A DNA stretch of 64,000 nucleotides from a virus, in IMG/VR virus record IMGVR_UViG_3300044632_000653; one strand, written 5' to 3'. The translations under genes were made by a program, and so were the position numbers. The notes beneath the pieces were generated by a model that saw nothing but the letters and a program-made list of their open reading frames with translations, searched no databases and was not told where the DNA came from. Positions 781-55,726 of the stretch are shown here, piece after piece (position 1 is the first letter of the stretch; every line of letters begins with the position of its first letter).

Positions 781-1310
781 ATAGATAAGGTATCGAAAGG
801 AACTCCAATGACCAACGAGAATCAAATCACCACCGCCACCATGCGGAACCTTGTCGAGGCTGCGAACGGGATCAACGAGGTCCACGGCGGCATCCTCCCC
901 TCCAAGCCCAATCTTGAAACACGCTTCAAGGCTGCGATTGCTCATAGGAAAACCCTTGAGGATCTCGAAGCGAAGATGGAGTTGTCCATGCGGCGACTGA
1001 AGGAGGAGATGATCAAACTTGAGAAGGCGAACAATTCCCTTCTCGTCCCTGTTTTGGACACACTTCGCAACAACGAAATTCTACCGAAGTCCATTTCCGT
1101 AGAGGCGCAGAGGCGAATCAAGGAGTGTCAGGCTGCTTGCAACGAAGTTCGCCTCGCTAGCGAGATGGTGGGTACCCATTTGTCCTCCATGAGCAATACT
1201 TGGAAGAAGTTGAACTGACGGGTATAGATAAGGTATCGAAAGGAACTCCAATGACCAACGAGAATCAAATCACCACCGCCACCATGCGGAACCTTGTCGA
1301 GGCTGCGAAC
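781..1310 (+). repeat. 87-bp exact direct repeat (781-867 and 1224-1310): late promoter + RBS + 20-codon leader
   Basis: atagataaggtatcgaaaggaactccaATGaccaacgag...gctgcgaac is identical in both copies. Confidence 0.95.
808..1218 (+). CDS. Coiled-coil protein with type-B leader MTNENQITTATMRNLVEAAN (putative internal head protein)
   Basis: ATG after AAGGA RBS and TAGATA promoter; leader shared with the next gene. Confidence 0.65.
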   Translation: MTNENQITTATMRNLVEAANGINEVHGGILPSKPNLETRFKAAIAHRKTLEDLEAKMELSMRRLKEEMIKLEKANNSLLVPVLDTLRNNEILPKSISVEAQRRIKECQAACNEVRLASEMVGTHLSSMSNTWKKLN

Positions 1311-1736
1311 ATGATCGGCAACGGGATCGACGAAGACATGACCGAGGGACTTCGGACGGTAGCGAAGTTCTACACCATGCCACTCGGTTTGCAGGTCGAG
1401 TTCAGGTTCGACCCGTCCAAGCCCAAGGAGGTGATATCGGTATCGGGTGGAACGAGCCGCAAGGTGCCGACCGAGTTGGTATTGGGATGGATTGCCTCCT
1501 ACAAGCACATCGATGACATGACGAGGACTGAACTCAACGGGGACAAGAGCCACTACGCTGTTCCCGACATGGACCACGGTCACTCGCCCGAGTTCGTCAT
1601 CGGTCCTTACTGGAGCAAGTTGTTCCTCAACAGACAGGGAAAGACTTCGATAAAGCACACCTTCCCCGATGTGTATGTCTATCCCCATTGGCTGAAGCGG
1701 ATCAGGGAACTGCTGACGGTCAAAAGACTTCCATGA
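1251..1736 (+). CDS. Hypothetical protein with identical type-B leader (putative internal head protein)
   Basis: Same promoter/RBS/leader cassette, unrelated cargo. Confidence 0.65.
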   Translation: MTNENQITTATMRNLVEAANMIGNGIDEDMTEGLRTVAKFYTMPLGLQVEFRFDPSKPKEVISVSGGTSRKVPTELVLGWIASYKHIDDMTRTELNGDKSHYAVPDMDHGHSPEFVIGPYWSKLFLNRQGKTSIKHTFPDVYVYPHWLKRIRELLTVKRLP

Positions 1737-2173
1737 AGACCTTCGTCTCCTACATCTCCGAGAACGCCCCCGAGGGGGCACCGAAGCCCGAGCGCAAGAT
1801 CGGCAAGGTCAAGTATTGGATGAACTTGACGGACAAGCAGGACGGCGAGGAGCCTTTTCGGGAGGTCGAGTACACCCGCAAGGTGAAGTCCGACACCGTG
1901 CCGAACGCCCATTGGTACTTCCTTGGTGACACCCCGATGTCGGGGATGACTAGGGGAGAGAGGCGTTACAGGGCGGCGGTCGTTTTGCTCATCGACACCC
2001 ATGGAATCTTCCTTGCTACGGTGAAGGAGGATGCCAAGATATCCAAGGGCAACTACGGCAGGTGGCAGTCGGGGGACTTTTGGACGGACAACTTCACCGC
2101 CGCCAAGCGGCATGCCGAGGACCTCGCCCTTCGCCGACTACAGCGAGAACAGCAACCGAAGCCAAAGGCATGA
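1733..2173 (+). CDS. Putative internal head protein, leader MKTFVSYISE
   Basis: 10-aa leader resembling the T4 IP capsid-targeting sequence MKTYQEFIAE; ATGA overlap with upstream stop. Confidence 0.7.
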   Translation: MKTFVSYISENAPEGAPKPERKIGKVKYWMNLTDKQDGEEPFREVEYTRKVKSDTVPNAHWYFLGDTPMSGMTRGERRYRAAVVLLIDTHGIFLATVKEDAKISKGNYGRWQSGDFWTDNFTAAKRHAEDLALRRLQREQQPKPKA

Positions 2174-2553
2174 AGACCTTCGTCTCCTACATCTCCGAGG
2201 CTGCGAAGCCTAGTCGTACCGTGCCCTACCGTTGGAGTGCGACGGATACGCAGCATGCCATGAACTACACTCGGACGATGCCGTCATCCGTTCCGAACGC
2301 CAAGTGGTATGTGGTCGATGGATCATACGACAAGGAGAAGAAGGACTACCGCCTCCTCCGTGACGGGGTGGTAATCGCTCATATCAGGTATCACCCGAGC
2401 GAAGGCGTGTGGCGATGGGAAACCATCCACAGCGCACCTAGAGGTGGATTGGGGATGGGTAGGCACGACAAGGGGAAGTATGTGTCTAGTAAGCCCCTCG
2501 CCCTTTCATTAGCGGAGAAGCAGATCATCGAAAGGGAGAGGACCGCAGGATGA
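2170..2553 (+). CDS. Putative internal head protein, leader MKTFVSYISE, partial paralog of previous gene
   Basis: First 30 nt identical to the gene at 1733; shared YTR...VPNAxWY motif. Confidence 0.7.
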   Translation: MKTFVSYISEAAKPSRTVPYRWSATDTQHAMNYTRTMPSSVPNAKWYVVDGSYDKEKKDYRLLRDGVVIAHIRYHPSEGVWRWETIHSAPRGGLGMGRHDKGKYVSSKPLALSLAEKQIIERERTAG

Positions 2554-2942
2554 AGGACTTCCACGGATTCATCTCCGAGGCTCCCGTCTCGTACACCGCA
2601 GTCATGCTCGACCAACGGAGCCATGACCTTCTCATGTCGAGGATGCGTCCTCACATGCCCGAGGGATGGAAGGTGTACGCCCACCACATGACGATGCACA
2701 TGGGAGCGGCGAAGCCCGAGGACAGGGTCGGGCAGTCCGTGACCATCGTCGCAGACGCATGGGCGGCTGACGAGCGCACGGTCGCCGTGAGGGTCACGGG
2801 TCACCCGAGCAGGAACAGGACCCCGCATGTGACCGTGGCTGTCAATGCCGCTGCGGGTGCGAAGCCCAAGGACAGCAACCTCCACACGGAATGGAAGCCG
2901 ATGCCTCCGCTGAGGCTGACGGGCACCGTGGGAGAGGCTTGA
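2550..2942 (+). CDS. 2H phosphoesterase with capsid-targeting-like leader MKDFHGFISE
   Basis: Two HxT motifs (HMT, HVT) about 47 aa apart. Confidence 0.75.
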   Translation: MKDFHGFISEAPVSYTAVMLDQRSHDLLMSRMRPHMPEGWKVYAHHMTMHMGAAKPEDRVGQSVTIVADAWAADERTVAVRVTGHPSRNRTPHVTVAVNAAAGAKPKDSNLHTEWKPMPPLRLTGTVGEA

Positions 2943-3013
2943 AGCGCAAACCCCACAGGCTCCTCCTCTTATGTGCCTTCCTCTAAGTAGGGCAAAGCAC
3001 CTTTGGAGGAAGC

Positions 3014-4386: not shown

Positions 4387-4698
4387 GTGAGGTCGTTCAA
4401 GTCATACATCTCCGAGGGACCGTACTCGTTCAAGGACTTCAAGGATCCTTGGGCTGTCATGTCGCCCGAGGACCGCAAGGAAGCGAACCGCCTGTTCAAG
4501 GCGGCGATGAAGGCGTTCCCTTCCTCCATGCGGCAGAAGGAACTGCAAGCCAAGTTGTTCGCCCTCCTCGACAAGTATGGGATAGGGAAGACAAAGGTTG
4601 CCGAGGATTGGTCGAAAGAGTACAAGGCTTCGATCAACTGCAACAACCCCAAGGGCTTCTCGCAACGGGCGCATTGCCAAGGCAGGAAAAAGGGATGA
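4387..4698 (+). CDS. Putative internal head protein (MRSFKSYISE) with C-terminal WSKxYKxSINCNNPKGFSQRAHC module
   Basis: GTG 6 nt after TACATA; CTS-like leader; VAE site before the basic Cys module. Confidence 0.65.
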   Translation: MRSFKSYISEGPYSFKDFKDPWAVMSPEDRKEANRLFKAAMKAFPSSMRQKELQAKLFALLDKYGIGKTKVAEDWSKEYKASINCNNPKGFSQRAHCQGRKKG

Positions 4699-5999
4699 AG
4701 TCATATCACGAACTCGTAATGTTCCTTGAGAACAGCGGTGTGATGAGGTTCACCGAGCGTGGACTCTCGTCCTATCTCAGTTCGGCAGAGCGCATGGTCA
4801 AGGATGCTCAGGCGAGGAGCGGAGACTTCGCACGGATGCAGGACGCACAGATCGCAGCAGTCCTCGGGCATCTCATATCCCATATCACCCGAATCGTGAA
4901 CACCGTTCCGAAGGACACGGATCCGAAGGCAGTCGGCATCGCACGGAAACTCCTCTCGCTCGGCGGCAAGGCTGCGAGCGTCAAGAAGGCATTCGATGAC
5001 CTCAGCCGCAGCGGTGCGGCGATTGCTGCGAGGATGACCTCCGAACTGCAAGGCAAGTACGACATGCGGTTTGAGTCATATGATGGAGCGCATCCCTACG
5101 AGATTGAGCGTGATCGGATCACCAAGGAAACAGTAGCCGCAGCAAAGGCAAGGGGATCGTCAAGGACGCAGGGAGAGAAACTTGCCAAGATAGAGATAGA
5201 ACGATGGAAGAAGGCAGAAGGCAAACACTTGTATTCCGACTTCACGAACCGACAATTTCGTGCAGCAACGGATCAGGAGAAACGAAACGAAGAGCGTGAA
5301 GCGCAAGCAAAGCAAGAAATCTCCCGAATGTTCTCTGATGCTGACAGGCTACTTGTAGCCGCAGGGTTCAAGTTGGAGCGTGGTCCTCAAGGCGGAAGCC
5401 AGTCACGCTATTACACCGATGGTAAAATCAAGGTCCGTATTTCGGACCACGAAGTTCCCATGACTGCGGAGCGTCAACACAACAGGACGGTCAGCGGCAG
5501 GAATCCATGGTTTGAATTCATATTTGGTGAACGAGATAGAGCAGGTGTCCTACGAGTGAATCCGAAGGAGTTGCAGCACTTGCGTGATTGGATTGGTGAT
5601 CTGAAGGAAATGCGATCCGAATCCCACGACCCCAAGCACATTGACGAGACTGCCTACGGAGTGTTCTCCAACTACCTCGGTTCCTCCATGATGTCGTTCG
5701 TGCAGACGAAACAGCATGAGTTGGATCGCAGGACCGACAAACTCACGAAGGCTCTCGCCCGTGTGCATGCACAAGGGGCTGCGGGAGTCCAAAGGGACCT
5801 CGGCTTGCCATTCGCACAGGTCAGCCTCGACGGGGTGGAGTTCCGTCCGCACAGGGGTGGCGTGAGGAAACTCCTCGTCCGATTCAACCCGAACGGGACC
5901 CTCGGGATCAACGCCGATGGGAAGACGGTGGCGAACTCCGCAGCCCTGCGTGACATCGGTCCCCTCATGGCGAAGATCGTCGGCGGCGGATTCGCATAA
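4695..5999 (+). CDS. Multi-module putative internal head polyprotein (MKSYHELVMFLE)
   Basis: CTS-like leader; segments separated by RFES / RSES..IDE; middle segment more AT-rich. Confidence 0.6.
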   Translation: MKSYHELVMFLENSGVMRFTERGLSSYLSSAERMVKDAQARSGDFARMQDAQIAAVLGHLISHITRIVNTVPKDTDPKAVGIARKLLSLGGKAASVKKAFDDLSRSGAAIAARMTSELQGKYDMRFESYDGAHPYEIERDRITKETVAAAKARGSSRTQGEKLAKIEIERWKKAEGKHLYSDFTNRQFRAATDQEKRNEEREAQAKQEISRMFSDADRLLVAAGFKLERGPQGGSQSRYYTDGKIKVRISDHEVPMTAERQHNRTVSGRNPWFEFIFGERDRAGVLRVNPKELQHLRDWIGDLKEMRSESHDPKHIDETAYGVFSNYLGSSMMSFVQTKQHELDRRTDKLTKALARVHAQGAAGVQRDLGLPFAQVSLDGVEFRPHRGGVRKLLVRFNPNGTLGINADGKTVANSAALRDIGPLMAKIVGGGFA

Positions 6000-7064: not shown

Positions 7065-7065
7065 A

Positions 7066-7182: not shown

Positions 7183-7217
7183 GCCTGTCCGTGGGTACCC
7201 GTGGACGGGCTCTTTTC
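7183..7217 (+). terminator. Intrinsic terminator
   Basis: gcctgtccgtgg-gtac-ccgtggacgggc stem (G.U pairs favour + strand) followed by tctttt. Confidence 0.6.
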
Positions 7218-7288
7218 CCTTGCATGTATGTATGGAGGTCGAGAGGTGGGGATGCTCTAAATACTCCACACATACGAAAGGGAAATCC

Positions 7289-7555
7289 ATGTACATCGAC
7301 CGCAGGACATTGAGGCAGTTGGTTGAGTCGGCGAACGGCATCGGCGACACATCCACACGACAGATCACCGAGGGCTATGAGAAGAAGATCATCTCTTACC
7401 TTGAGGATGGGGGCTTCAAGAAGGGCGACGCATGGTTCGACATGGGAACCCTTTATGTGAGCAGCAAGGGCTTGGTCGAAAAGGCGAAGACCATCCTCAA
7501 GAAGAAGAGGGACATTTTTGAGTTGCCGAAGATCGTCGTGGACAAGACCTCGTAA
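7289..7555 (+). CDS. Small protein with type-B leader (MYIDRRTLRQLVESANGIG..ITE)
   Basis: TAAATA at 7258-7263, RBS; leader similar to 808, 1251 and 21928. Confidence 0.65.
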   Translation: MYIDRRTLRQLVESANGIGDTSTRQITEGYEKKIISYLEDGGFKKGDAWFDMGTLYVSSKGLVEKAKTILKKKRDIFELPKIVVDKTS

Positions 7556-7567: not shown

Positions 7568-7885
7568 ATGAAGAACTACCGTGAGTTCATCACCGAGACC
7601 TTCGATTCCTTCAAGGTGTTCAAGCACAAGGCGAACGCCAACGAGGAGGATTCCGAGTACGGCATCAGGGCTCTGATCCGATACACCCATGTTCTTCCCT
7701 CGGGTGAGAAGACGGTCATCACCTCTCTCTTTCCTCCGATCCAACTGAGGACAACGGACAACAAATACCAGTTCAATCGCCATCTCAACGCAATGGTTGC
7801 GAGTCTCAAGGCTGAAGGCAGGGAGATCCTCGGCATCCACATGAGAGGTGATCCACTCTACGACAGGCTTATGAAAAGGGGGTAA
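7568..7885 (+). CDS. Putative internal head protein, leader MKNYREFITE
   Basis: Close match to T4 IPII/IPIII leader MKTYQEFIAE. Confidence 0.7.
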   Translation: MKNYREFITETFDSFKVFKHKANANEEDSEYGIRALIRYTHVLPSGEKTVITSLFPPIQLRTTDNKYQFNRHLNAMVASLKAEGREILGIHMRGDPLYDRLMKRG

Positions 7886-16540: not shown

Positions 16541-16559
16541 GGAAACCATAAATACTCAT

Positions 16560-16856
16560 GTGAAGACCTTCAGCGAGTACATCATGGAGACCAACACCAC
16601 GGCAAACCTGATCTATGCGGGGACGGACTTTGCCGTCGATGATGTCGGGGGAGACTTCGATGTCGAGGACTACGAATCCGAAGACCCCGAGGACCGCAAG
16701 AAGATGAAACCGTGGGAAGTGGAGAACGCCGAGGAAGCGAACCGCCGCAGGAACCACATCCTGCAGTGGCTGAAGGCAGCGGGGGCAAATCAATCCAAGG
16801 CGGTGACCGACAAGAGTTTGCCGCTCACACCCGAATGGCAGTCGAGGACACGATGA
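16560..16856 (+). CDS. Putative internal head protein, leader MKTFSEYIME
   Basis: GTG 5 nt after TAAATA; CTS-like leader. Confidence 0.7.
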   Translation: MKTFSEYIMETNTTANLIYAGTDFAVDDVGGDFDVEDYESEDPEDRKKMKPWEVENAEEANRRRNHILQWLKAAGANQSKAVTDKSLPLTPEWQSRTR

Positions 16857-17797
16857 AGTCTTACCAGCATTTCATAAACGATCTCAACGAGATGAAGAAC
16901 ATAGGTGACGGCGACTGCATGGTGGTCGCCGCACAGATGTTGGTCTATCAGTCGTTCGGACCACACGCCGACATCGTGAACAAGGACTCCGTTCTCGTCC
17001 ATGCCCTCGTCAGGGGTCAAGGCAAGGCGAAGGGTCTCCGATTCGCCCACGCATGGGTCGAGACGGGTGACACGGTTTACGACTACAGCAACGGCAACAA
17101 GATAGCGATGCCGAAGGATGTCTACTACGCCATCGGCGGGGTGAAGGCCAAGCAGAAGGGTGCCTACTTCACATACACGCTGAAGGAAGCGAAGAAGAAG
17201 TTGCTCTCGACGGGTCACTACGGTCCTTGGGATCTTGACGAAAGCCTTGAGGAGAACAAGATCTCGGATCCCCGAGGGATCGGTCGGAAGAGGCTGCGGC
17301 TGTCCCCGAAGATGACCGATTTCCTCAAGACGAAGTTGACCGAGGCGATCATCACGGGTCGCCCGACCACGGGCATGCGCACGGGCGGGGGTGTGCGCTC
17401 CCTCGCACCCGCACAGCCGCAGGAGCATTCGTTCGTGTCGTGGAACGATCTCAAGCGGCTTGAGTCCATGCTTGATGCGCTCTTCGCACAGGCGGGTCTC
17501 GACATCGCCTTCACCAAGCACTTCTGGGAACGAATCAATGGAAGCCGTGGCTACGGTGGTACGGTTTCGATCCCCGAGTTGCAGGATGCCTTCCGCAAGA
17601 CCTTCTCCAAGTACGCACAGCAGATCAAGGGGAAGTCGGTGAATTGGAAGGCAATCATCCTCGACATCGGCAAGGACCACCTCAACATGCCCTTCGTCCT
17701 CAATTGGAGCCCACAGGAGAAGGAGATGTCCATCGTCGCCCTCACGGCGATGAAGAAGCGCAACTTCATGGCATCCGAGCCCAAACTCCCCGTCTGA
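16853..17797 (+). CDS. Two-domain putative internal protein: papain/transglutaminase-like domain + RelE/BECR-like domain
   Basis: Leader MKSYQHFINDLNE; GDC...HAWVE triad pattern; second module FTKHFWERINGSR after LTE. Confidence 0.55.
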   Translation: MKSYQHFINDLNEMKNIGDGDCMVVAAQMLVYQSFGPHADIVNKDSVLVHALVRGQGKAKGLRFAHAWVETGDTVYDYSNGNKIAMPKDVYYAIGGVKAKQKGAYFTYTLKEAKKKLLSTGHYGPWDLDESLEENKISDPRGIGRKRLRLSPKMTDFLKTKLTEAIITGRPTTGMRTGGGVRSLAPAQPQEHSFVSWNDLKRLESMLDALFAQAGLDIAFTKHFWERINGSRGYGGTVSIPELQDAFRKTFSKYAQQIKGKSVNWKAIILDIGKDHLNMPFVLNWSPQEKEMSIVALTAMKKRNFMASEPKLPV

Positions 17798-17800: not shown

Positions 17801-17983
17801 ATGGAAGACCGAATCATCAACCGAGGGAAGGATTGGTTCGCCTTTACGAAGAGCATGGCTGACTACATGGTGAAGCCCATCCCGAGGAAGTTGCGGGGAG
17901 AGCCGAAGACCAAGGGAATCGCCAACGACACCCGACAGGCGCAGCACTCACCGACGAAGAATACGACAAGGATGCGACTCTAA
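17801..17983 (+). CDS. Small basic hypothetical protein
   Basis: Fills gap; TAATG coupling to the next gene. Confidence 0.5.
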   Translation: MEDRIINRGKDWFAFTKSMADYMVKPIPRKLRGEPKTKGIANDTRQAQHSPTKNTTRMRL

Positions 17984-19371
17984 TGAAAACCTACTTCGAC
18001 CTACGACAGGACCTACGACAGCAGAACCCCGATCAAGCCGAACTCATCGCCGAGCAGTTGAACCGCTACCTTGAGGAGAAGGCACTCGTCCTCGGGAAGG
18101 GCGAGAACTACGGACAGGCGGTCATCCTTGCGGGTGGTGCGGGATCGGGCAAGTCTTTCGCCGTCAGCAACTTCATGCAGGGGGAGAAGTTCAAGGTGTT
18201 CAATGTGGACTCACTCAAGGACACCCTGCTCTCCATCAGGGATCGTTTGAAGCGAGTCCCTGACATGCAACTCTCGGGAGGTATCAAGAGCGTCGTGCAA
18301 GCGATCCAAGACCTCAACCTGAGGAAGCCAAAGGATGTGGGCACCCTTCACATGATAGCGAAGAAGTTGGGTGGCAGGGGTCCAAATGACTCCACGATGA
18401 TTGGCAGGGTCGTTGGCAAGGTCGATGACACCAACTTCCACAAGCAGGAGGACATCCTCTCGCTGAAGGAACTGATCAAGGACTTCAATGTCGATCAGAA
18501 GAATCAGATCATGTTCTTCGCCGACAAGACCAAGAGCGTCAAGCCGAATGTGATGTTCGATGTGACGCTCAAGGACATCGGTGCGCTGCATAGTGAACTC
18601 GGTGGAGAGTTCGGCATCATCCAACTCCTCAAGATGGCGGGATATGCACCCGAGAACATCCACATCGTTTGGATCCTCACGGACTACCGCATCGCCATGC
18701 GGCAGAACCTCACCCGCAGTCGTGTCGTGGCATCGGACATCTTCTTCGCCACGCACCTCGGCGCAAGCGGAACCATGCGGGACATCGTCTTCAAGAACTA
18801 CTCAAGCCTCGGGATCAACGGCGATATCGCCGTCATCCTCGGAGGCGGCAAGGGACAAGTCGAGTTTGAGGTTGGCAAGTCCTATGGACCCGATACGAAG
18901 TCCACCGAGGGGACTCCTCTCCTCAAGGGCGGTCTCAAGGGGAAGTCGTTCACCGTGACCTCTGCGAACAAGTTGACGCTTCCTGTGTTCATCGACTTCC
19001 GCTACTACAGGCTGAAGAAGGCAGGTGACCGTTCGATCAACCGAGAGGCTCTTCAGTCGATCCACGATGCGATCAGCAAGATGGCACCGAGCGGGAAGAC
19101 GGGTGCGGCGGCTGCACAGGCGCAGGTCGTGCGGAAAATAATGAGCGACTTCAACGGGGCGCAGAAACTGATCTTGCAGATGCTCCAGCGAGGTGTCTCG
19201 GTCGAGCAGATCAAGAGCGAGTACAGGAGGAAGTTCCCTCCCCTCAAGCCGATCCACCCCGAGACGGCTGCTGCACTCGGTCTCTCCGAACTTGAGTACA
19301 AGCCCGTACTCGACCAACGGGTGGCTGACATCCTCGGTTTGAAGGTCGGGGAGTACAAGTTGAGGAGTTGA
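17983..19371 (+). CDS. P-loop kinase (AAA_33/zeta-toxin-like fold) with MKTY leader
   Basis: AVILAGGAGSGKS Walker A, NVD, VMFDVT, RQNLTRSRVV lid; LEE site before the domain. Confidence 0.75.
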   Translation: MKTYFDLRQDLRQQNPDQAELIAEQLNRYLEEKALVLGKGENYGQAVILAGGAGSGKSFAVSNFMQGEKFKVFNVDSLKDTLLSIRDRLKRVPDMQLSGGIKSVVQAIQDLNLRKPKDVGTLHMIAKKLGGRGPNDSTMIGRVVGKVDDTNFHKQEDILSLKELIKDFNVDQKNQIMFFADKTKSVKPNVMFDVTLKDIGALHSELGGEFGIIQLLKMAGYAPENIHIVWILTDYRIAMRQNLTRSRVVASDIFFATHLGASGTMRDIVFKNYSSLGINGDIAVILGGGKGQVEFEVGKSYGPDTKSTEGTPLLKGGLKGKSFTVTSANKLTLPVFIDFRYYRLKKAGDRSINREALQSIHDAISKMAPSGKTGAAAAQAQVVRKIMSDFNGAQKLILQMLQRGVSVEQIKSEYRRKFPPLKPIHPETAAALGLSELEYKPVLDQRVADILGLKVGEYKLRS

Positions 19372-21376: not shown

Positions 21377-21931
21377 ATGCTGACCCTTACGGAAGCCATA
21401 CTCAAGGCGAACCCCAAGTCGCAGATCTACTGCGACATGGACGGGGTACTCGTTGACATCATCGGCGGCATCTGTTCTGCCGATGGGAAGCCCCGATGCA
21501 GCGAGACCGACTTTGAGGACTACTTGGAGCGCAACAAGAAGAAGTTCGACTCGGAGCATCCGAGGATCTTCGCAAGGCTCCCGTGGATGAAGGACGGCAA
21601 GGGGCTGTGGTCGTACATCTCGCAGTTCTCGGCAAACATCCTCTCGGCACATACGGTTTCATGGCAACCGACGAGCAAGGAAGACAAGATGGTATGGATC
21701 AAGCGTGAGATGCGACCCTTGCCATCAAGGATCCACATCCTGCTACGCCATCAGAAGCGTGAGTACGCCGTACAGGATGACGGCACACCGAACATCCTGA
21801 TCGATGATTGGGAGCAGAACATCGTTGAGTGGAAGGCTGCGGGTGGGATCCCCATCCATCATAAGAATGCCGCCACCACGATTGCCACGCTCAAGAAGTT
21901 GGGATTCAATAAGGGGAGAAAGACAGCATGA
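21377..21931 (+). CDS. HAD-family 5'(3')-deoxyribonucleotidase-like
   Basis: IYCDMDGVL, ILSA, K, ILIDD motifs; ATG 5 nt after TAAATA. Confidence 0.85.
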   Translation: MLTLTEAILKANPKSQIYCDMDGVLVDIIGGICSADGKPRCSETDFEDYLERNKKKFDSEHPRIFARLPWMKDGKGLWSYISQFSANILSAHTVSWQPTSKEDKMVWIKREMRPLPSRIHILLRHQKREYAVQDDGTPNILIDDWEQNIVEWKAAGGIPIHHKNAATTIATLKKLGFNKGRKTA

Positions 21932-45091: not shown

Positions 45092-45110
45092 AGATATGGG
45101 ATTGCAATCC

Positions 45111-45201: not shown

Positions 45202-45768
45202 ATGGACCACATTTACACACAGCCGCAGTTTGGAGAGAATTGGTTTACCTATCCGAACCTCTACTCACAATTTGTCCGTGAACTGCCAAGCGGTTCCAAG
45301 ATGGTGGAGGTTGGTTGTTGGAAGGGAAAGAGCATCGCCTACCTCGGGGTCGAGATCATCAACTCAGGGAAGGACATCCATGTCCATGCCATCGACACTT
45401 GGGAGGGATCGCCAAACGAACCTCCACATCAGCAGGATGTCTATGTCCGAACGGGGAAACTCTATCAGTTGTTCCTGTCGAACATCTCCCCCGTCTCTTC
45501 CGTGGTGTTTCCCGTGAAGGTCGCTTCGGTCGAGGGCGCAAAGAGGTATGCCGATGAGTCCTTGGATGTCGTGTTCATCGACGCATGCCACACCTATGAG
45601 TGCGTCAAGGAGGACATTGCAGCATGGCTTCCGAAGGTGAAGAAAGGCGGCTACCTTGCGGGACATGATTACCCTTGGAGCCATGAGGATGCCGTAAAGA
45701 GAGCGGTGGATGAGAGCGTTTCTCCAATCCAAGTCACCGAGGGATGTTGGGTCTATAAGAAAAGGTAA
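45202..45768 (+). CDS. Class I SAM methyltransferase (Methyltransf_24-like)
   Basis: VEVGCWKGKS, IDTW, FIDACHTYE, GHDY. Confidence 0.88.
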   Translation: MDHIYTQPQFGENWFTYPNLYSQFVRELPSGSKMVEVGCWKGKSIAYLGVEIINSGKDIHVHAIDTWEGSPNEPPHQQDVYVRTGKLYQLFLSNISPVSSVVFPVKVASVEGAKRYADESLDVVFIDACHTYECVKEDIAAWLPKVKKGGYLAGHDYPWSHEDAVKRAVDESVSPIQVTEGCWVYKKR

Positions 45769-45773
45769 TCAAG

Positions 45774-48248: not shown

Positions 48249-49406
48249 ATGCTCACATTCAAGGAAGTCGGCACCACAGAGATCACCCGCAACAAGCACC
48301 TCCCCCATGTCGAGGACCTCATGTTCCTTGAGGGAAAGGGAGGTCTCGCCTCCTCGCTCCACATCCTCGCCGAGGTGATGCGTCAGTCCGATGGCATCAG
48401 GATGTCGGTGAAGTGGGATGGTCGCCCCGCCATCGTGTGTGGGATCAATCCCGAGAACTCCAAGTTTTTCGTCGGCACGAAGGCGGCGTTCAACAAGGAT
48501 GTCCGTGCGTTCGACACCAAGGATGGGATCATGGCGGGGGTGGAGAACCCCGACCTCGCCGAGAAGTTGGTCGAGTGCCTCGCATGGCTCCCTAGCCTCG
48601 GCATCCGAGGTGTCGTGCAAGGCGACCTCCTGTTCACCTCCGATTCCATCACGGTCACCGAGGAGGAGGTGGCGTTCCAACCCAACGCCATCAGGTACTC
48701 GGTCGGAAGGAACACCGCCGTGGGCAAGGCGATCAGCAACGCCAAGTTGGGTGTCGCCTTCCATACGGTCTACGAGGGCAAGACCATGGGATCGCTCACG
48801 GTCTCCTCGTTTGGATTCGACCCTTCCATGGTCGCACAGGATTCCCCCGTTTGGTTCCCGAGCATCTCCGTACACACCCTCACGGAAAGCACTCCACTTG
48901 AGAACGCCACCAATGAGGCGAGGCTCCACTACTGCGAGGAGCAGTCGGAGAAGGTCGGGCAGTTCCTCGGGACCATGCTCTCAAACAAGGAACTCGTCCC
49001 CTTCCTCTCCCCCTACATCAACGCCACGGTCATGGCGAACATCTCGGAGTGTTCGGCACGGGGTCTTGCCCTCTACATCGAAACCAAGGTGGGCAAGGAG
49101 ATCCTCAAGTTGAAGACCGACAAGGGCAGGTCGGACAAGAAGGCACTAGCAGACCGCCTGATCAACTTCACCGAGGTCTACGCCAAGCAGTTCGATACGG
49201 CGTTTCTCCTACATAGGAAGATGGCTCTCGTAAAGGAATCTCTCCTCCAAAGGGTGCCTCTTACCGAGTTCCGCCATCACTTTGTCGATGCCGAGGGCAT
49301 GCGACCGACCGAGCCCGAGGGAATCGTCGTGAGTGAGTCCAAGAGAGCCGTGAAGTTCGTGACACGGTCACGGTTCTCGGCGCAGAACAGGAAGGTAAAC
49401 GGGTGA
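48249..49406 (+). CDS. Conserved T4-like phage protein (DUF6267-like; ligase-type KxDG motif)
   Basis: NKHL.HVED, SVKWDG.PAIVCG, FFVGTK, QGDLLF, PEG.V; TAGATA at 48232. Confidence 0.75.
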   Translation: MLTFKEVGTTEITRNKHLPHVEDLMFLEGKGGLASSLHILAEVMRQSDGIRMSVKWDGRPAIVCGINPENSKFFVGTKAAFNKDVRAFDTKDGIMAGVENPDLAEKLVECLAWLPSLGIRGVVQGDLLFTSDSITVTEEEVAFQPNAIRYSVGRNTAVGKAISNAKLGVAFHTVYEGKTMGSLTVSSFGFDPSMVAQDSPVWFPSISVHTLTESTPLENATNEARLHYCEEQSEKVGQFLGTMLSNKELVPFLSPYINATVMANISECSARGLALYIETKVGKEILKLKTDKGRSDKKALADRLINFTEVYAKQFDTAFLLHRKMALVKESLLQRVPLTEFRHHFVDAEGMRPTEPEGIVVSESKRAVKFVTRSRFSAQNRKVNG

Positions 49407-52400
49407 AAGGTTTCTCCACACACATCAGCGAGCGTGGTCCGAGGGACACCGCAGTCTTCTCGTTCGGGCGCATGAATCCTCCGACAACGGGACATGGTGT
49501 GGTGGTGGACACGGTCGTTGAGGAGGCTAGGGCTCTTGATGCCGATCACTTCGTCTTCCTCTCCCGCACACAGGATGCAAAGGTGAACCCCCTCTCGACC
49601 GAGAAGAAGGTCGAGTACATGAAGGCGTTCTTCCCGAATACAAACATCTCCACCGAGGCTACGAACCCCTTCGATGCCGTCCTGCATCTCTGCGACATGG
49701 GATACAAGAACATCGTCCTCGTCACGGGAGATGATCAACAGGCTGACTACGAGCGCATCCTGAAGTACAAGGGAACGGTCGCCGCCAAGGATCCAAAGGG
49801 AAGGTCCTACTCGTTTGAGTCGTTCCGAGTCCGTGTGGCGGGGGAGCCCCGCTCCAAGGATTCGACGGGACTCGCAGCCGTGGGTGCGACCGATGCCCGT
49901 GAGGCGGCTTTCAGAGGCGACTTCGCCGCATTCTCCGCACTCATCCCCACCGAGGACGGTCTCCTCAAGGAGCGGCTCTACAACGATGTCCGCAAGGGTC
50001 TCGGTCTCAACGAGGAGTATGTCGAGGAGGCTCGGGAGAACGGAGACAAGGTCACCATCCTCGCCCTGACATCCTCGGACAAGGATCTCTCGGACACGAT
50101 TGAGAAGATGGGGGAGATCTGCAAGAAGCGCAAGATCCCCTTCTATGCCGTCAAGACGAAGAAGGCGCAGATCGACCTGTCGAGCGTCGTGGCGAAGAAG
50201 ATCACCATCAAGAACTATGACGGCGAAGGCAAGGATGTGACCATCGTTCCGAGCGACACGATAGCAATCGTCCGTGGCGGGGTTATGAACAGCGAGGTCG
50301 GGGTTGCGATCCTCACCATCCTTCAGAACAACGGCGTGTTCATGGTGAACGAGAAGGGGGGTATGGAACTCTGCGCCAACAAGTTGGAGACCGCCATCGC
50401 CCTCAAGAAGCACGGTCTGCCCCACCCAAAGACCGCCTATGTCTCTAGCGAGGCGAACATCGAAGCCGCAGTCAAGGAGATCGGGGGCAAGTTTCCCGTC
50501 ATCTGCAAGACCCTGACGGGTGCCGAGGGCATCGGTGTCTCCAAGATCGAAAGCATGGAGAGCCTCAAGAGCGTCCTACAGACGCTTTGGAAGTTCGGTG
50601 CCGAGATCATCATCCAAGAGTTCCTCCCCGACTTCAAGAACGATGTCCGCAGCATCGTCCTCAACGGCAAGATCTTCGCCTGTGCCAAGCGTGACAAGGC
50701 ACCGAAGGACTTCCGCACGAACATCGCCCGTGGATCGAAGGGCGGCTCGTTCCAACTCTCCGACGAGGAGATCAAGTTGGTCGAGCAAGCCGCTCGGGTG
50801 AGCAAGTGCTACTATGTCGGAATCGACCATGTCATCAACGATGGCAAGCCGTACATCATTGAGATGAACGCAAGCCCTGGCAGCGGCAACATCTACTACC
50901 GCTACTACGAGGACGGCAAGGGCAAGGACAATGTCAAGGGCGAGGAGTTGGTCGAGGACTTCCTTGACCACATCCTTGTCAAGGCAAATTGGAAGTTGTT
51001 CTCAAACCTCGCAGTCCGTGAGACGGTGAAGGTCGATGGCGTGGAGTACCAAGCCAAGATCGACACGGGGAACAGCGGCTACAACATGATCCATGCCACG
51101 GAGATCAAGGACAACGGCGACCACACCGTCACCTTTAGGCTCCCGAGCGGCAAGAAGGTGACGAAGAAGATCATCAGCCGCATCAGCGTGAAAAGCGGGA
51201 TCGGGGAGAAGAAGCGTCTCGTCGTGCTGATGGACATCGACTTCCACGGGAAGCACTATCCGAACATCAAGTTCTCCCTCGGCGACCGAAGCCACATGTC
51301 GAGCAAGGTCCTCGTCGGTCTCCGATTCCTCGGACAGACGGGCAGCGTGGTTGACCCCGCCGATGCCATCTATCCTCAACCCGACCCCAAGAAGAAGGGG
51401 GTGACCGAGGAGGAGGAAGAGGAGGAGGAGATCTCGGAGATGTCTGCGGTCGAGGTGAAGGACGCAGCCAAGGAGATCATCACAAGCCCGTTGGTGGCGA
51501 CCAAGGTATTCGCTCTCGCCAACAAGAAGAAAGTGCTGACTCCCGAGGCTTTCAAGAAGGAAGTTGAGACAACGAAGCAGGAAATCCTCGCCCACGCATA
51601 CAAGGTCACGGGCGCATCCGTGACCTTGAACATGTTCCTACAGAAGACCATGTTGGGCAAGTTCTTGGTGAAGATCCTCGACAAGGTCCTCATCCAAGGA
51701 ACCATCGACCCCGTGATTGTGGGGAAGGCTCTCCACTCGGCTATTCCGTATCTCGGCATGGGCGACGATGTCGATGGCAATCCCCTCGTCGAAGCCGATG
51801 TCACCAAGGGCAAGAAATTCAAGACCAAGTCGGGCAAGACGAGGAAGTCGCCCGAGGACAAGACCTCGGGTCTCCCGAAGAAGTATGTCTCGGGATTGAG
51901 CAAGGGCGAGGCGAAGACCCGAAGCAGGGAACTCGCCAAGCGGAAGGACATGCCCGATGACGATCCCAAGACTTGGGAGTTCGTGAATCCACGGGAGAAA
52001 AAGATGAAGACGAAGCCGTCGAAGTACACGACGCTGTTCAAGAAACTCGCCAAGAAGGGCAAGGTCAAGGCTATCAAGAGCGGCTACGAGCATGACGAGG
52101 CTTTGGAGCGGCTGTGGTCCATTGACGAGTCCCAAGAGACGAACTCGTCCAAGTTGAGGCTAGCCATCGCCTACGAGGACCGATGCCGTGAGCGAGGCAT
52201 GTCGGAGGCTACCGAACTCGTCAGGGCGTACATCGAACAACTCAAGGAAGTCCGCAACGAAGAGATCGGCACGGACGAGCCCACCACCATTGACGAGGAC
52301 TTCGACTACCTGCTGATGGAGGTGAGTCCTCCTAGCGGACCCGCCCGTCGATTCTCCAAGAAGGAGAAGGTCAAGGCTCAGTTCAAGAAGAGGTACGGCA

Positions 52401-53005
52401 AAGATTGGAAGCAGGTCTTCTACGCCACGGCATGGAAGATGCACGGCAAGTCCGAGTCGGTCGTGGTCGCCGACGAATGGCTTGCCGAGGCTGACAGGAT
52501 CCACGGCGTGATGAAGTGGACCTCCTTGAGCAAGCGTGGTCCCCTTGAGATAGGCAGCGACGAGATCGTCAAGACCTACAAGCGTGACACTCCAGGTGAG
52601 CGTGAGCGTCTCAAGGAGGAGGGCGGCGAGGAGATCGATGACGAGAAGAGGCGGCTCTACAAGGAGTGGCAGAAACTCGTCAACATGTCGGGCAAGGAGA
52701 TCCAATCGTTCCTCGACTCCGATGGTGGCGAGGAGGCGGGATTGAGCCGCAAGGAGGCGGGTAAGGCGGGAGCGGGTGGCAAGAAGATCACCAGCGGTCG
52801 TGACTCTGCCCGTGCGATCATCCGAATGCTCGACACCCCGATGGTGAAGTGGAGTGCCAACGATTGGAAGTGGGCGGGTAAGCAAGTCAACTTCATCTCC
52901 CGCATGAAGGGTGCGAAGGGCGGCATGCGTGACGAGAAGGGTCGCCCCACCCGCAAACTCCTAGCACTCAAGGTTTGGGGTCACAACCCCGAGAAGAAAG
53001 GCTGA
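49403..53005 (+). CDS. 1200-aa polyprotein: CTS-like leader, HIGH-type nucleotidyltransferase, RimK-like ATP-grasp ligase, retropepsin-like (RimB-type) protease, poly-Glu, small basic modules, DUF3140-like C-terminus
   Basis: MKGFSTHISE; FGRMNPPTTGH; NKLET..P.T..FPVICK..G.EGIGV..QEF..DVR..FRTN.ARG..GID..EMNASPG; AKIDTGN; E8 at 51407-51430; LVNMS..SGRDS..WGHNP. Confidence 0.85.
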   Translation: MKGFSTHISERGPRDTAVFSFGRMNPPTTGHGVVVDTVVEEARALDADHFVFLSRTQDAKVNPLSTEKKVEYMKAFFPNTNISTEATNPFDAVLHLCDMGYKNIVLVTGDDQQADYERILKYKGTVAAKDPKGRSYSFESFRVRVAGEPRSKDSTGLAAVGATDAREAAFRGDFAAFSALIPTEDGLLKERLYNDVRKGLGLNEEYVEEARENGDKVTILALTSSDKDLSDTIEKMGEICKKRKIPFYAVKTKKAQIDLSSVVAKKITIKNYDGEGKDVTIVPSDTIAIVRGGVMNSEVGVAILTILQNNGVFMVNEKGGMELCANKLETAIALKKHGLPHPKTAYVSSEANIEAAVKEIGGKFPVICKTLTGAEGIGVSKIESMESLKSVLQTLWKFGAEIIIQEFLPDFKNDVRSIVLNGKIFACAKRDKAPKDFRTNIARGSKGGSFQLSDEEIKLVEQAARVSKCYYVGIDHVINDGKPYIIEMNASPGSGNIYYRYYEDGKGKDNVKGEELVEDFLDHILVKANWKLFSNLAVRETVKVDGVEYQAKIDTGNSGYNMIHATEIKDNGDHTVTFRLPSGKKVTKKIISRISVKSGIGEKKRLVVLMDIDFHGKHYPNIKFSLGDRSHMSSKVLVGLRFLGQTGSVVDPADAIYPQPDPKKKGVTEEEEEEEEISEMSAVEVKDAAKEIITSPLVATKVFALANKKKVLTPEAFKKEVETTKQEILAHAYKVTGASVTLNMFLQKTMLGKFLVKILDKVLIQGTIDPVIVGKALHSAIPYLGMGDDVDGNPLVEADVTKGKKFKTKSGKTRKSPEDKTSGLPKKYVSGLSKGEAKTRSRELAKRKDMPDDDPKTWEFVNPREKKMKTKPSKYTTLFKKLAKKGKVKAIKSGYEHDEALERLWSIDESQETNSSKLRLAIAYEDRCRERGMSEATELVRAYIEQLKEVRNEEIGTDEPTTIDEDFDYLLMEVSPPSGPARRFSKKEKVKAQFKKRYGKDWKQVFYATAWKMHGKSESVVVADEWLAEADRIHGVMKWTSLSKRGPLEIGSDEIVKTYKRDTPGERERLKEEGGEEIDDEKRRLYKEWQKLVNMSGKEIQSFLDSDGGEEAGLSRKEAGKAGAGGKKITSGRDSARAIIRMLDTPMVKWSANDWKWAGKQVNFISRMKGAKGGMRDEKGRPTRKLLALKVWGHNPEKKG

Positions 53006-53008
53006 CCG

Positions 53009-53269
53009 ATGAAGAACTTTGGGGGAATCAAGAAGGACATCATGGAAGCCCGCATCGCCGCCTTGGAGAAGAAGGCGAAGAAGAGCGGCATCCCATACGG
53101 CATCCTAAAGAAGGTCTACGACAGGGGAATGGCTGCATGGAAGGGGGGTCACCGTCCAGGTGCCACCTCACACCAATGGGCATTTGCCCGTGTCAACTCG
53201 TTCATCGTGGGCGGGAAGACCCGCAAGACCGCCGATGCCGACCTTTGGAAGAAAGCCAAGGGCGGTTGA
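53009..53269 (+). CDS. DUF5824-like small basic protein with leader MKNFGGIKKDIME
   Basis: KKSGIPYGILKKVYDRG.AAW..GHRPG....QWA.ARVNSF. Confidence 0.75.
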   Translation: MKNFGGIKKDIMEARIAALEKKAKKSGIPYGILKKVYDRGMAAWKGGHRPGATSHQWAFARVNSFIVGGKTRKTADADLWKKAKGG

Positions 53270-53300
53270 TCGCTAAATAGAAAGCACTAGGAGAGTCAGT

Positions 53301-54179
53301 ATGTCCATGTTTCACAATCCATTCAACTCCAAGGTCGTAGCCGACATCACCAAGTTCCTCAACGAGCATCGCAACGATGTGAGGATCAATCCTTGCCTTG
53401 ACGAGGCTGCGAAGGAGGCTGCGGGGGGCATCGACCTCGACGGAATGCTGATTGAGGAGAAGAGGGCGGTCCTCCGACTCGCCTTCAACGAGGCTGTCGG
53501 TAAGTGCGGCTGCAAGGGCACGAACCAAGAAGCAAACGAGTTCACGGCTGCGTTTGAGAGGCATGTCGAGGAAGGCAAGAAGTTGCCGCCCGAGTTCCTA
53601 AAGAACATCGAAAAGAAGAAGAAGGAAGCGAAGGCGAAGAAGGAGTCGGTCGAGGAGGGTGAGCATCGCCGCCCTTTTGACCGCTTGGACGAGGCATACG
53701 CCCTAGAGGGCTTTGCCCAACCGACTGAGAAGGAACTCAGGAAGTTGGTGAAGTATTTTCAAACGATACTCAAAGACCCGAAGAAACTGAAGGCGAGCGG
53801 ATTCGACAAGAAAGAGGCAGAGGAAAACCTTGAGGATGCGCTTCACATGATCAAAACCATGGAAGAGTTCGCCAAGGACTTTGCAGCAACCAAGGCTAAG
53901 GTCAAGGAATCCTTCGATGTGACCGAGTTGGGCGAGGCGAAGGCTTCGTCCACTATCGAATTCTCTCTCATGTCGAAGGACTTCGATGGAATGGAATCCG
54001 CCCACGACTCCCTCCCTAGGAGGTTGAAGTCGATGCAGACGGGATCGGGCATGGCGTTGGGGAGCGGGATGCGTGACCACGGCTACGAGTGCAAGTCGAA
54101 GTCCGACATGGATGCCATCGTCGCCCACTACAAGAAGAAGGTAAAGAGCCTGACCGTCAAGAAGCACTCTGCGGAGTAG
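53301..54179 (+). CDS. Putative internal head/scaffold-like polyprotein
   Basis: TAAATA at 53274, AGGAG RBS; many L/V-x-E sites; Lys/Glu-rich. Confidence 0.6.
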   Translation: MSMFHNPFNSKVVADITKFLNEHRNDVRINPCLDEAAKEAAGGIDLDGMLIEEKRAVLRLAFNEAVGKCGCKGTNQEANEFTAAFERHVEEGKKLPPEFLKNIEKKKKEAKAKKESVEEGEHRRPFDRLDEAYALEGFAQPTEKELRKLVKYFQTILKDPKKLKASGFDKKEAEENLEDALHMIKTMEEFAKDFAATKAKVKESFDVTELGEAKASSTIEFSLMSKDFDGMESAHDSLPRRLKSMQTGSGMALGSGMRDHGYECKSKSDMDAIVAHYKKKVKSLTVKKHSAE

Positions 54180-54185
54180 GTCGGG

Positions 54186-54413
54186 GTGACCGAGGCTGCG
54201 AAGAAGCAGTCTTTCTCTGACCTCTTGATGAAAAAGGCAACGAGGAAGAAGGAGCCTTGGGAAGAGGCTTACTACAAGTGGTTCGATGGCGTGTCGATTG
54301 GAATCTTTGACATGGGTAAGGTTGCCAAGGAGATTCAGGCTCTTATCGCAGCGAAGGCGAACCTTGATGTCGAGATGCCGAAACTTGTGAAGAAGTACGG
54401 CAAGAACAACTAG
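54186..54413 (+). CDS. Small hypothetical protein
   Basis: ORF in late array. Confidence 0.5.
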   Translation: MTEAAKKQSFSDLLMKKATRKKEPWEEAYYKWFDGVSIGIFDMGKVAKEIQALIAAKANLDVEMPKLVKKYGKNN

Positions 54414-54452
54414 GATTCGGACGGCTGCTAAATACCGCAAAGGGAGAAACAG

Positions 54453-55223
54453 ATGGCACTTTGGAACAAGTTTGACAGGGAAGAGTCCAAGCCGACTTGG
54501 CTGAACGCAGCACAGAAGATCAACTGTGTTCGCACCATCAAGGGATGGGAACTTCCGCTCGACGGCACCTCGCTTGGCGGTCAACTTCAGGGCAAGTTGG
54601 GCACGACGGCATCGGTTCCGAACATGGAACTCCTTGTCGCCATTCCGCTCGACTTTTCCACCACGGGCGTGACCGACGCTTACTACGCCAACCGCAGCAT
54701 CACCGCCGCAGGTGCGACCTACGGCACCGATGTGCCGAACTACCGTCCCTACTTCACCTGCCCCTTCAGCGGGGATGGTCCGACCGAGGGTGGTTTCAAC
54801 AGCGCAGGTCTGTCCTTCACCACCTCGGTGGCGGGTTCGGGCACCACGGGCGCAGGAAACTACGCCGTCAACGGCTACGGTGTCTCCACTCTGAACTTCC
54901 CCGCCTCGGCGACGGCTTACATCAAGATCGTCGCCAACGATGTGAACTTCACCCACAACCTCACCTTCAGCGAGGTCACCGATCCGTTCGGTGCGCAGGG
55001 CAACATCGTGCAGGGATCTGCGCTGTTGGTCGCAAACAATGTCCCGACCGCAGTCTACGAGACCTTCTTCGGACCCACCTCGGCGTTCAACAACAATGTC
55101 GCCGTGTTCAAGGTCAACAGGGCGGGTGCCACCGCTGCCAACCGCTCGGTCACCCTCCGTGTGACCGATGCGGGATCGGGAAGCCTTACCGCCGACACCA
55201 CCTTCAAGGTGTCCTTCGTCTGA
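54453..55223 (+). CDS. Virion structural protein
   Basis: MALW N-terminus; Thr/Gly/Ala-rich Ig-like end; TAAATA at 54429. Confidence 0.6.
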   Translation: MALWNKFDREESKPTWLNAAQKINCVRTIKGWELPLDGTSLGGQLQGKLGTTASVPNMELLVAIPLDFSTTGVTDAYYANRSITAAGATYGTDVPNYRPYFTCPFSGDGPTEGGFNSAGLSFTTSVAGSGTTGAGNYAVNGYGVSTLNFPASATAYIKIVANDVNFTHNLTFSEVTDPFGAQGNIVQGSALLVANNVPTAVYETFFGPTSAFNNNVAVFKVNRAGATAANRSVTLRVTDAGSGSLTADTTFKVSFV

Positions 55224-55234
55224 TAGGAGTCACC

Positions 55235-55726
55235 ATGAAGTCGTTCAAGGAACTGCGCAAGACCATCAACGAGAGTTCGTATCCTTCGGCGTTCGACGCT
55301 GCGGGAACTAGGGGTCGTGTCGGTCCTCAGGACAGCGACAACTCGTTGGAGTTCGGTCGGAACCTCGCCGACCTGTCGAGGCAGTCCATCGCTAGGATCA
55401 ATACCTACCTCGGAGCCCTCGGAGCCAAGCCGTACATCAATCCGATGGAGGCTTTGAAGCAAGCGCAGGGTCGCCTTCAGATGGTCGGTCTCGACTTCCA
55501 CATCCCCAAGGACTTCTGCACCACGGTCGAGGAGTCCGAGACCACCAACACCTTCCCCCTGACCCGATTCGGGGGAACCCTTAGGTCGGATGGCACCACC
55601 TACGGATACGAAATGGATGACGGGATCACCCCTGTCCTCGGTCATGGCTTGATGATGCAGGTCGAGACCCAACGGCTCACGAACGGTCTCATCCAAGTGC
55701 AAGCCATGGTGGTCCCCTCCACCTAA
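55235..55726 (+). CDS. Virion protein with leader MKSFKELRKTINE
   Basis: AGGAG RBS; CTS-like leader. Confidence 0.7.
   Translation: MKSFKELRKTINESSYPSAFDAAGTRGRVGPQDSDNSLEFGRNLADLSRQSIARINTYLGALGAKPYINPMEALKQAQGRLQMVGLDFHIPKDFCTTVEESETTNTFPLTRFGGTLRSDGTTYGYEMDDGITPVLGHGLMMQVETQRLTNGLIQVQAMVVPST

Follow-up and report, generated by a model that had tools for sequence, protein, structure and literature searches.

Candidate T4-type capsid-targeting leaders on unrelated genes of a 57% GC T4-like myovirus

Why should genes with unrelated products open with nearly the same ten amino acids? The question is raised by IMG/VR virus record IMGVR_UViG_3300044632_000653, of which we analysed one stretch of 64,000 nucleotides (hereafter the window) belonging to a 57% GC, T4-like myovirus related to the Kyanoviridae. 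Seven + strand open reading frames (ORFs) in the window, named here by their first nucleotide (1733, 2170, 2550, 4387, 7568, 16560, and 49403), begin with M-[KR]-x-[FY]-x-x-[FYH]-I-x-E. In T4, ipII and ipIII begin MKTYQEFIAE, as a first-pass annotation of this DNA had stated and as we verified in NC_000866; that decapeptide is the capsid targeting sequence (CTS), which is removed by gp21 (PMC8442874). Comparative evidence gives good support to the view that the leader in the window marks unrelated cargo for capsid targeting and cleavage in the T4 manner: its pattern of conservation, a tagged orthologue detected in virions, the shuffling of leaders and cargo, linkage to late promoters, and the basic character of the cargo.

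The leaders were compared with those of relatives taken from IMG/VR: G001, a 61.7-kb contig nearly identical to the window (90-98% identity); G002, the nearest near-complete relative (168 kb, 93% complete), whose gp43 is 64% identical to that of the window; and, in addition, G003 and G004. When segments of the window were searched against a phage collection, as nucleotides and as protein, no cultured phage proved close at the DNA level.

The first-pass annotation had listed the same seven exact leaders, and all were found in place. In the six-frame translation of the window the expression [KR]x[FY]xx[FYH]IxE occurs seven times, each time directly after an ATG or GTG that heads a + strand ORF, and the equivalent degenerate DNA pattern has 7 matches where shuffled sequence leads one to expect 0.01, an enrichment at gene starts of the kind the annotation had proposed to look for. 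T4 has, in its entire genome, three sites of the same pattern (at ipII, at ipIII, and at the small ORF 61.1), and each of four complete Kyanoviridae genomes has one or two, so that, by a single yardstick, this 64-kb window holds more tags than all of T4, as had been claimed, and more than any of those four genomes. Three of the seven ORFs (4387, 16560, and 49403) start with GTG; these starts are credible because G001 carries ATG at the 4387 codon, G002 carries ATG at the 16560 codon, and, in 49403, no start other than the GTG lies upstream of FGRMNPP, the essential strand before the nucleotidyltransferase motif. None of the replication genes in the window bears the tag, and, as gp43 begins MKPFY, MKxF alone is not diagnostic. 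With variants included, the window has at least seven strict and about five variant tags; the tag thus sits on at least seven unrelated genes and probably on ten or more.

The third T4 site deserves a remark of its own. ORF 61.1 (NC_000866 18966-19130), a hypothetical protein of 54 aa, begins with the CTS-like decapeptide MKTFKEFIKE and lies between primase gene 61 and helicase gene 41, the interval that in the window holds the leader cluster of 48249-55726.

T4 genetics assigns targeting mainly to CTS residues 4 and 7 and processing to residues 8 and 10, and an Asp at position 10 stops cleavage, not targeting (PMC9026906). The leader of 7568 is identical to the T4 CTS at 7 of 10 positions, and PHROG 2667, annotated as "internal head protein," matches residues 1-31 of the 7568 product (E 3.8e-4). 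The family of 16853 allows a broader comparison: about 50 full-length homologues with 50-72% identity begin M-[KR]-x-F-x-x-[YFH]-[LIV]-x-E directly before the GDGDCM of the mature domain. Among 40 aligned leaders of this family, no variation is seen at positions 1, 4, and 10, entropy is low at positions 7, 2, and 8, and positions 3, 5, 6, and 9 are nearly free, which is the profile that the T4 targeting and processing mutants would predict. In the copy of the window, position 10 is an Asp, after which comes a new L-N-E; this reads as a cleavage site displaced by three residues.

Leader and cargo behave as separable units. The leaders of 1733 and 2170 are identical at 30 of 30 nucleotides, and identity falls to about 35% in the aligned stretch that directly follows. 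In G001 the body of 2170 is found at another locus, behind the 4387 leader MRSFKSYISE and followed by the conserved C-terminal tail of 4387; the body of 2550 is fused there behind a new 189-residue domain by way of an internal leader copy, ENFHAFINE, and the 98% nucleotide identity between window and G001 resumes exactly past the leader of the 2550 body. The same cargo thus stands behind different leaders, and the comparison with G001 shows that tags and cargo recombine at the tag boundary between close relatives. The 2H-like domain of 2550 has 928 database homologues, which align only from residue 11-15 onward; 92 standalone members carry no leader, and in 31 of the top 150 the domain is one module within a protein of 600-2300 aa.

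The G001 fusion (reverse complement 1451-2407) encodes 318 aa, running from a leader, MKNFHTFIAE, through the 189-residue domain (absent from the window) and ENFHAFINE to the 2H-like domain; it reads as a natural two-cargo polyprotein with an internal candidate cleavage site. The tail of 4387 marks the 3' junction of the G001 cargo swap. Its sequence ...KEYK.SINCNNPKGFSQRAHCQGRKK (4600-4698; about 162853-162930 in G002) shows, judged by eye, nucleotide conservation above that suggested by the 64% identity of gp43, and may represent a small Cys-containing module or a recombination boundary.

The orthologues of 49403 connect the leader with the virion. The N-terminal domain of the 49403 product belongs to the cyanophage core cytidylyltransferase family T4-GC190, with which it shares a position after gp41. 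Members of this family begin MKKFSAFLNE in S-SM1, MKSFFQFLSE in S-SM2, VKSFGQFLTE in S-SSM7, and MKKFSEIIEA in Melnitz, and in C48C1 the frame reads IKNFSQYLLE upstream of the annotated start; the orthologues in G001-G003 bear leaders as well. The T4-GC190 protein of S-SM1 was detected by mass spectrometry in purified virions (Sullivan et al. 2010, PMC3037559), and the supplementary table marks T4-GC190 at 148256-149419 of S-SM1 as structural (PMC3037559). Its gene, SSM1_190, is the only + strand match of the leader pattern in the S-SM1 genome. Tag and virion presence therefore coincide in one relative with proteomics, and a tag on T4-GC190 would explain why an apparent metabolic enzyme is present in cyanophage virions. 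Neither the leader nor a link to the T4 CTS is mentioned in the passages of Sullivan et al. 2010 (PMC3037559) that were consulted, and in a full-text search of the literature "capsid targeting sequence" was tied to cyanophages only incidentally. A RimK-like protein of phage YerA41, also marked as particle-associated, was given little weight, since that proteome also lists many replication enzymes.

Three database homologues of 676-804 aa (P0168, P0172, and P0184) combine a leader, a cytidylyltransferase, and a zeta-toxin-like kinase in one chain, so that genes tagged separately in the window occur fused in other phages.

Linkage to late promoters, which the first-pass annotation had named as a check, also holds. 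The hexamer TAAATA occurs 13 times on the + strand of the window and never on the - strand, and 10 of the 13 copies lie 5-25 nt before a start codon; TAGATA occurs seven times on + and once on -. Boxes of these two kinds also precede the tail-fibre genes at 59077 and 60675. The late box of T4 is TATAAATA, and we read TAAATA/TAGATA as a shortened T4-type late promoter. Judged from sequence, every leader gene sits in an operon headed by such a late box (Table 1), and the replication genes are untagged. Several strong hairpin terminators are directly followed by late boxes (7183/7258, 12973/13009, 15360/15443, and 16505/16549), one of them, at 16505-16532, upstream of 16560.

These terminator-promoter units (7183-7263, 12973-13014, 15360-15448, and 16505-16554) recall the PeSL cassettes of T4-like phages, from which they differ in having late promoters where the cassettes have early ones. 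At several genes (boxes at 16549, 21366, 35281, and 22852, for example) just 5 nt separate the end of TAAATA from the start codon and a Shine-Dalgarno sequence is absent; this spacing is conserved in the G002 orthologues.

The products of the leader genes are basic: their median pI is 9.5, compared with 6.8 for the remaining genes (p = 0.003), and 10 of 12 have a pI above 9.

Beyond the exact leaders, the first-pass annotation had proposed six looser ones, of which five gain support from orthologues and one, at 48249, stays weak. In 16853, 53009, and 55235, [IL]xE occurs at residues 11-13 and is conserved in orthologues, defining a 13-residue variant (M-K-x-F/Y ... I-x-E). The G002 orthologue of 53009 begins MKNYKSLKQDITE, and the leader of 55235 is nearly invariant in G001, G003, and G002, the residues after it being divergent. 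The other two are supported through orthologues: that of 4695 in G003 opens with the canonical MRTFANYLTE, and the 17983 family keeps MKT[FY] at its N-terminus, canonical leaders such as MKTFSQHLTE being found only in distant members. A leader also appears on orthologues of the HAD-type phosphatase gene 21377 (MKSFLHHINE in G002 and MNGFNEHLLSE in G004).

A second conserved N-terminal motif, [RK]-x-L-x-E-[AS]-[AI]-[NK] (for example TMRNLVEAAN, TLRQLVESAN, RRILAEAIK, and LKNLTEAAN), occurs five times in six frames (808-860, 1251-1303, 7289-7340, 13040-13085, and 21928-21975). All five occurrences lie near the N-terminus, within the first 8-17 residues, of ORFs that come directly after late-promoter boxes, and the motif is conserved in G002; it may be a second class of propeptide with an L-x-E cleavage site.

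We consider it likely that the 10-residue leader is a T4-type CTS, with late synthesis, core binding, cleavage by gp21, and retention in the head, and that it serves as a module on unrelated cargo. The tagged proteins would be made late in infection, and the N-terminal half of the leader (Lys2, the aromatic residue at 4, and the aromatic residue or His at 7) would bind them to the prohead scaffolding core. The prohead protease gp21 would then cut after (I/L)-x-Glu, at residues 8-10 or, in the longer variant, 11-13, and the mature, mostly basic proteins would remain in the head beside the DNA, which they would probably accompany into the host. The clade would have placed this separable tag on many unrelated proteins, among them small basic ones as well as a 2H-like phosphoesterase, a zeta-toxin-like kinase, a papain-like hydrolase, and a polyprotein of 1200 aa with cytidylyltransferase, RimK, and protease modules, with tags and cargo exchanged by recombination at the tag boundary. 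Core binding, cleavage, head retention, injection, and an effector role are what we infer for this phage.

Several observations weigh against this reading. No gp21 was found in the window or in G001, both of which are fragments that lack the head module. I-x-E is lost in the G004 cytidylyltransferase (MKRFAIQGEE) and in the G002 orthologue of 4387 (MKSFLQFMEG). For 48249, only ML[ST]F is conserved, with no conserved cleavage site, and the orthologue in cyanophage S-SM1 has no leader, so that this putative leader finds no support outside the immediate clade. The cargo of 16560 and 55235 is acidic, unlike the T4 internal proteins. The 5-nt distance from box to start codon suggests leaderless or near-leaderless late mRNAs, and a multi-domain protein of 1200 aa, that of 49403, would have to leave the head with the DNA. 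As for the protease, gp21 is counted among the T4 core genes, and G002 encodes a Peptidase_S77 (gp21, E 1e-33) in a gp20 ... gp21-gp22-gp23 block; gp21 is also present in G005. Given its core status and its presence in G002, gp21 is very probably encoded by the phage of the window as well.

The most durable alternative accepts cleavage by gp21 and disputes what follows: the tagged proteins would be prohead core or scaffold components that mainly serve assembly or DNA condensation and are degraded, expelled, or left inert, rather than injected as effectors. T4 core proteins are likewise processed at (I/L)-x-E and most of the scaffold is degraded (PMC8442874), and the products of 1733, 2170, 4387, 7568, 16560, and 55235 are small, basic or acidic, and devoid of enzyme signatures. 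Several other cargo proteins, however, are recognisable enzymes, with homologues in giant proteins of phages for which delivery to the host is predicted (PMC5512222), and the loci are hypervariable between close relatives, which fits host-interaction genes better than assembly parts; we regard this alternative as improbable. A second alternative would move the function of the shared N-terminus to the level of nucleic acid or translation, as an enhancer of initiation on poorly initiated late mRNAs or a patch of homology for cassette recombination. Many leader genes do lack an obvious Shine-Dalgarno sequence, start with GTG, overlap the upstream stop codon, or begin 5 nt from the box, and the recombination junctions fall at the end of the leader. 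Yet conservation is at the amino acid level and at specific positions, with synonymous and conservative codon changes; the conserved positions match the protein-level determinants of T4; the motif persists across 57% GC phages, AT-rich cyanophages, and T4; and the internal leader copy in the G001 fusion cannot serve initiation, all of which makes this explanation very unlikely. The idea that the motif is a chance or annotation artefact of start picking in high-GC sequence has in its favour only the general abundance of spurious ORFs in the window, and is refuted by the excess over shuffled sequence, by the confinement of every match to ORF starts on the coding strand, and by retention of the motif in orthologues of four related contigs and in more than 50 database homologues.

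Table 1. Leader genes, late-promoter boxes, and landmark genes of the window
Feature	Coordinates	Strand	Candidate leader or box	Product or context
1733	1733..2173	+	MKTFVSYISE	136-aa basic protein
2170	2170..2553	+	MKTFVSYISE	Body distantly paralogous to 1733
2550	2550..2942	+	MKDFHGFISE	2H-phosphoesterase-like domain, two HxT motifs
4387	4387..4698	+	MRSFKSYISE (GTG)	Small basic protein, conserved tail ...SINCNNPKGFSQRAHCQGRKKG
4695	4695..5999	+	MKSYHELVMFLE (variant)	434-aa basic protein
7568	7568..7885	+	MKNYREFITE	95-aa basic protein
16560	16560..16856	+	MKTFSEYIME (GTG)	88-aa acidic protein; first gene after terminator and late promoter
16853	16853..17797	+	MKSYQHFINDLNE (13-residue variant)	Possible papain/transglutaminase-like Cys-His domain plus C-terminal domain
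17983	17983..19371	+	MKTYFDLRQD...	Probable zeta-toxin-like P-loop kinase
21377	21377..21931	+	MLTLTE (start in window)	HAD-type phosphatase; TAAATA 5 nt upstream
48249	48249..49406	+	MLTFKEVGTTE (weak, leader-like)	DUF6267 protein
49403	49403..53005	+	MKGFSTHISE (GTG)	1200 aa: cytidylyltransferase, RimK ATP-grasp, RimB-type protease, DUF modules
53009	53009..53269	+	MKNFGGIKKDIME (13-residue variant)	DUF5824 basic protein
55235	55235..55726	+	MKSFKELRKTINE (13-residue variant)	150-aa acidic protein
Putative late-promoter core	16549..16554	+	TAAATA	5 nt upstream of 16560
Putative late box	1225		TAGATA	Genes 1251, 1733, 2170, 2550
Putative late box	4375		TACATA (weaker)	6 nt before 4387; genes 4387, 4695
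Putative late box	7258			Genes 7289, 7568
Putative late box	16549			Genes 16560, 16853, 17801, 17983
Putative late box	48232		TAGATA	11 nt before 48249; genes 48249, 49403, 53009
Putative late box	54429			Genes 54453, 55235
T4-type DNA polymerase (gp43)	32740-35274			48% identity to Kyanoviridae gp43
UvsX-like gene	36072			Judged by N-terminus only
gp41-like helicase	46669-48144			Judged by N-terminus only
gp61-type primase	56917-57951
Collagen-like tail fibres	from 59077

What the tag might deliver can be judged from the cargo, for which the labels of the first-pass annotation fared unevenly: the 2H-like domain, the P-loop kinase (here specified as zeta-toxin-like), and the nucleotidyltransferase/RimK protein were retained, the Cys-protease-like label, here papain-like, is weak, and the RelE-like one was abandoned. 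The assignment of 49403 as cytidylyltransferase, RimK ATP-grasp, and RimB-type protease with DUF3140, DUF5824, and DUF6321 modules is firm (matches to cytidylyltransferase, RimK, Zn_protease, and the three DUF families), as are those of 48249 to DUF6267 (Pfam E 5e-73, the profile beginning at residue 15) and of 53009 to DUF5824. In the 49403 protein, 13 of 16 internal [IL]xE sites are conserved in four orthologues, a count that is uninformative at 71% identity; the [IL]xE sites with variable P2 at the domain borders (202, 795, 971, and 1027) give a hint of possible internal processing, and no more.

The remaining enzyme labels are less secure. We have moderate confidence that 2550 encodes a 2H-like phosphoesterase, given its motifs HHMTMH and PHVTVAV and a match to Pfam tRNA_lig_CPD (E 9e-5) whose 22.4 bits lie under the cut-off of 23. 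Confidence is likewise moderate for 17983 as a zeta-toxin-like P-loop kinase: its Walker A sequence is GGAGSGKS and homologues at 30-38% identity carry PF06414, and the protein itself has no Pfam match at E <= 0.01. The N-terminal domain of 16853 may be a papain/transglutaminase-like hydrolase, an assignment that we hold weakly. Residues C22, H66, and D77 are invariant and form a candidate Cys-His-Asp triad; the structural model (pLDDT 73) has N-domain Z scores of 4.4-5.7 to LapG, NTAQ1, SseI, and protein glutaminase, below the safe threshold, and Foldseek returned no match to it at E <= 0.001. A VIA-align comparison of the model gave weak papain-like matches and no others for the N-terminal domain, and nothing RelE-like for the C-terminal domain. 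Sequence searches of the PDB with the 2550, 16853, and 17983 proteins gave nothing significant.

Among the smaller products, that of 1733, whose G001 orthologue retains the leader, has no Pfam or PHROG family match; the ESM Atlas gave only sub-threshold leads, including Tad6 at 0.78, which were not used as an identity. Orthologues of 7568 start MKNFHEFVTE in G001 and MKSYKDYISE in G002, and tblastn of the 7568 protein against phages gave only matches with E > 1. The leader of 16560 is retained in its orthologues in G001, G003, and G002.

In the window at large, almost every real gene is on the + strand and shows high GC at the third codon position, and across 40000-48000 the GC content falls to about 0.54 with lower AT skew. 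Two further proteins are encoded in late operons together with leader genes: a signal-peptide protein (3014-4345) with a Pfam Cohesin match (E 1e-5) and a 356-aa protein (7889-8959) with a Dockerin_1 match (E 3.6e-9).

[quoted passage not shown] Common to both are also late genes in a T4-like genome, mostly small and basic cargo, and unrelated mature parts behind one tag at loci that are hypervariable between relatives. The window differs in its larger number of tags, in its 13-residue variant, in multi-domain enzymes of up to 1200 aa, and in belonging to a distant 57% GC relative of the Kyanoviridae. T4 Alt, an ADP-ribosyltransferase, offers a likeness: this enzyme is packaged in the head, processed by the prohead protease, and injected along with the DNA, as we propose for the window; it is not known to start with a leader of the MKTYQEFIAE type, and the enzymes of the window come from other families (nucleotidyltransferase, ATP-grasp, kinase, phosphoesterase, and Cys hydrolase).

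Proteases of phiKZ-like jumbo phages cut after (S/A/G)-x-E and remove long, dissimilar propeptides, and we know of no 10-residue N-terminal tag shared by the ejection proteins of these phages. What they have in common with the proposed system is a large set of head-internal proteins, a gp21-related protease, and ejection into the host, as in SPN3US (PMC5694885, PMC7411985). Polyvalent proteins, which occur in phages and conjugative elements, are multi-domain effectors for which packaging and injection have been predicted (Iyer et al. 2017, PMC5512222). They resemble the present case in that the 2H-like domain of 2550 recurs in proteins of 600-2300 aa and that 49403 strings several domains together, whereas in the window most domains are encoded singly, by genes that carry a T4-type tag apiece; a fusion to a MuF, portal, or zincin MPTase domain was not encountered there, no specific or exhaustive search for one having been made. 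Cyanophage T4-GC190 (PMC3037559), the orthologue of the 49403 N-terminal domain with the same post-gp41 position, the same leader, and detection in S-SM1 virions, differs in its length of about 390-460 aa and in the absence of the RimK and protease modules of 49403.

The first-pass annotation had proposed a general loading signal for unrelated cargo. Comparative evidence favours that proposal, although the principle is not new: the CTS as a loading signal for diverse proteins is already described in the T4 literature (PMC3012670, PMC9026906). What is new here is the clade, the number of tags, the 13-residue variant, and the enzyme and polyprotein cargo, together with direct evidence of the shuffling and fusion of tags and cargo and the recognition of the tag on a core cyanophage cytidylyltransferase detected in virions. 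The finding extends known biology and overturns nothing.

Descriptions of the T4 CTS, a textbook device and a tool of biotechnology, have been confined almost wholly to T-even coliphages; here the tag, down to its functional positions, is found conserved both in a distant T4-like clade of high GC and on a core gene of cyanophages. We put forward a wider interpretation tentatively, at somewhat less than even chances: that this freshwater T4-like clade, and by extension marine Kyanoviridae, use the CTS as a plug-and-play label, with tags swapped at their boundary, on a kit of pre-made enzymes that is injected and acts before phage gene expression, and that the cyanophage core cytidylyltransferase is accordingly an injected protein rather than a metabolic one. 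If so, the kit would comprise the polyprotein with cytidylyltransferase, RimK, and protease modules together with a zeta-type kinase, a Cys hydrolase, and a 2H phosphoesterase, to which relatives would add a HAD nucleotidase, and might be aimed, for example, at host defences based on nucleotide signals or RNA targeting. With the tag as a simple rule, packaged proteins could be predicted from sequence across thousands of T4-like genomes from uncultured phages, and the genes that bear it make up a shortlist of candidate effectors for the first minute of infection.

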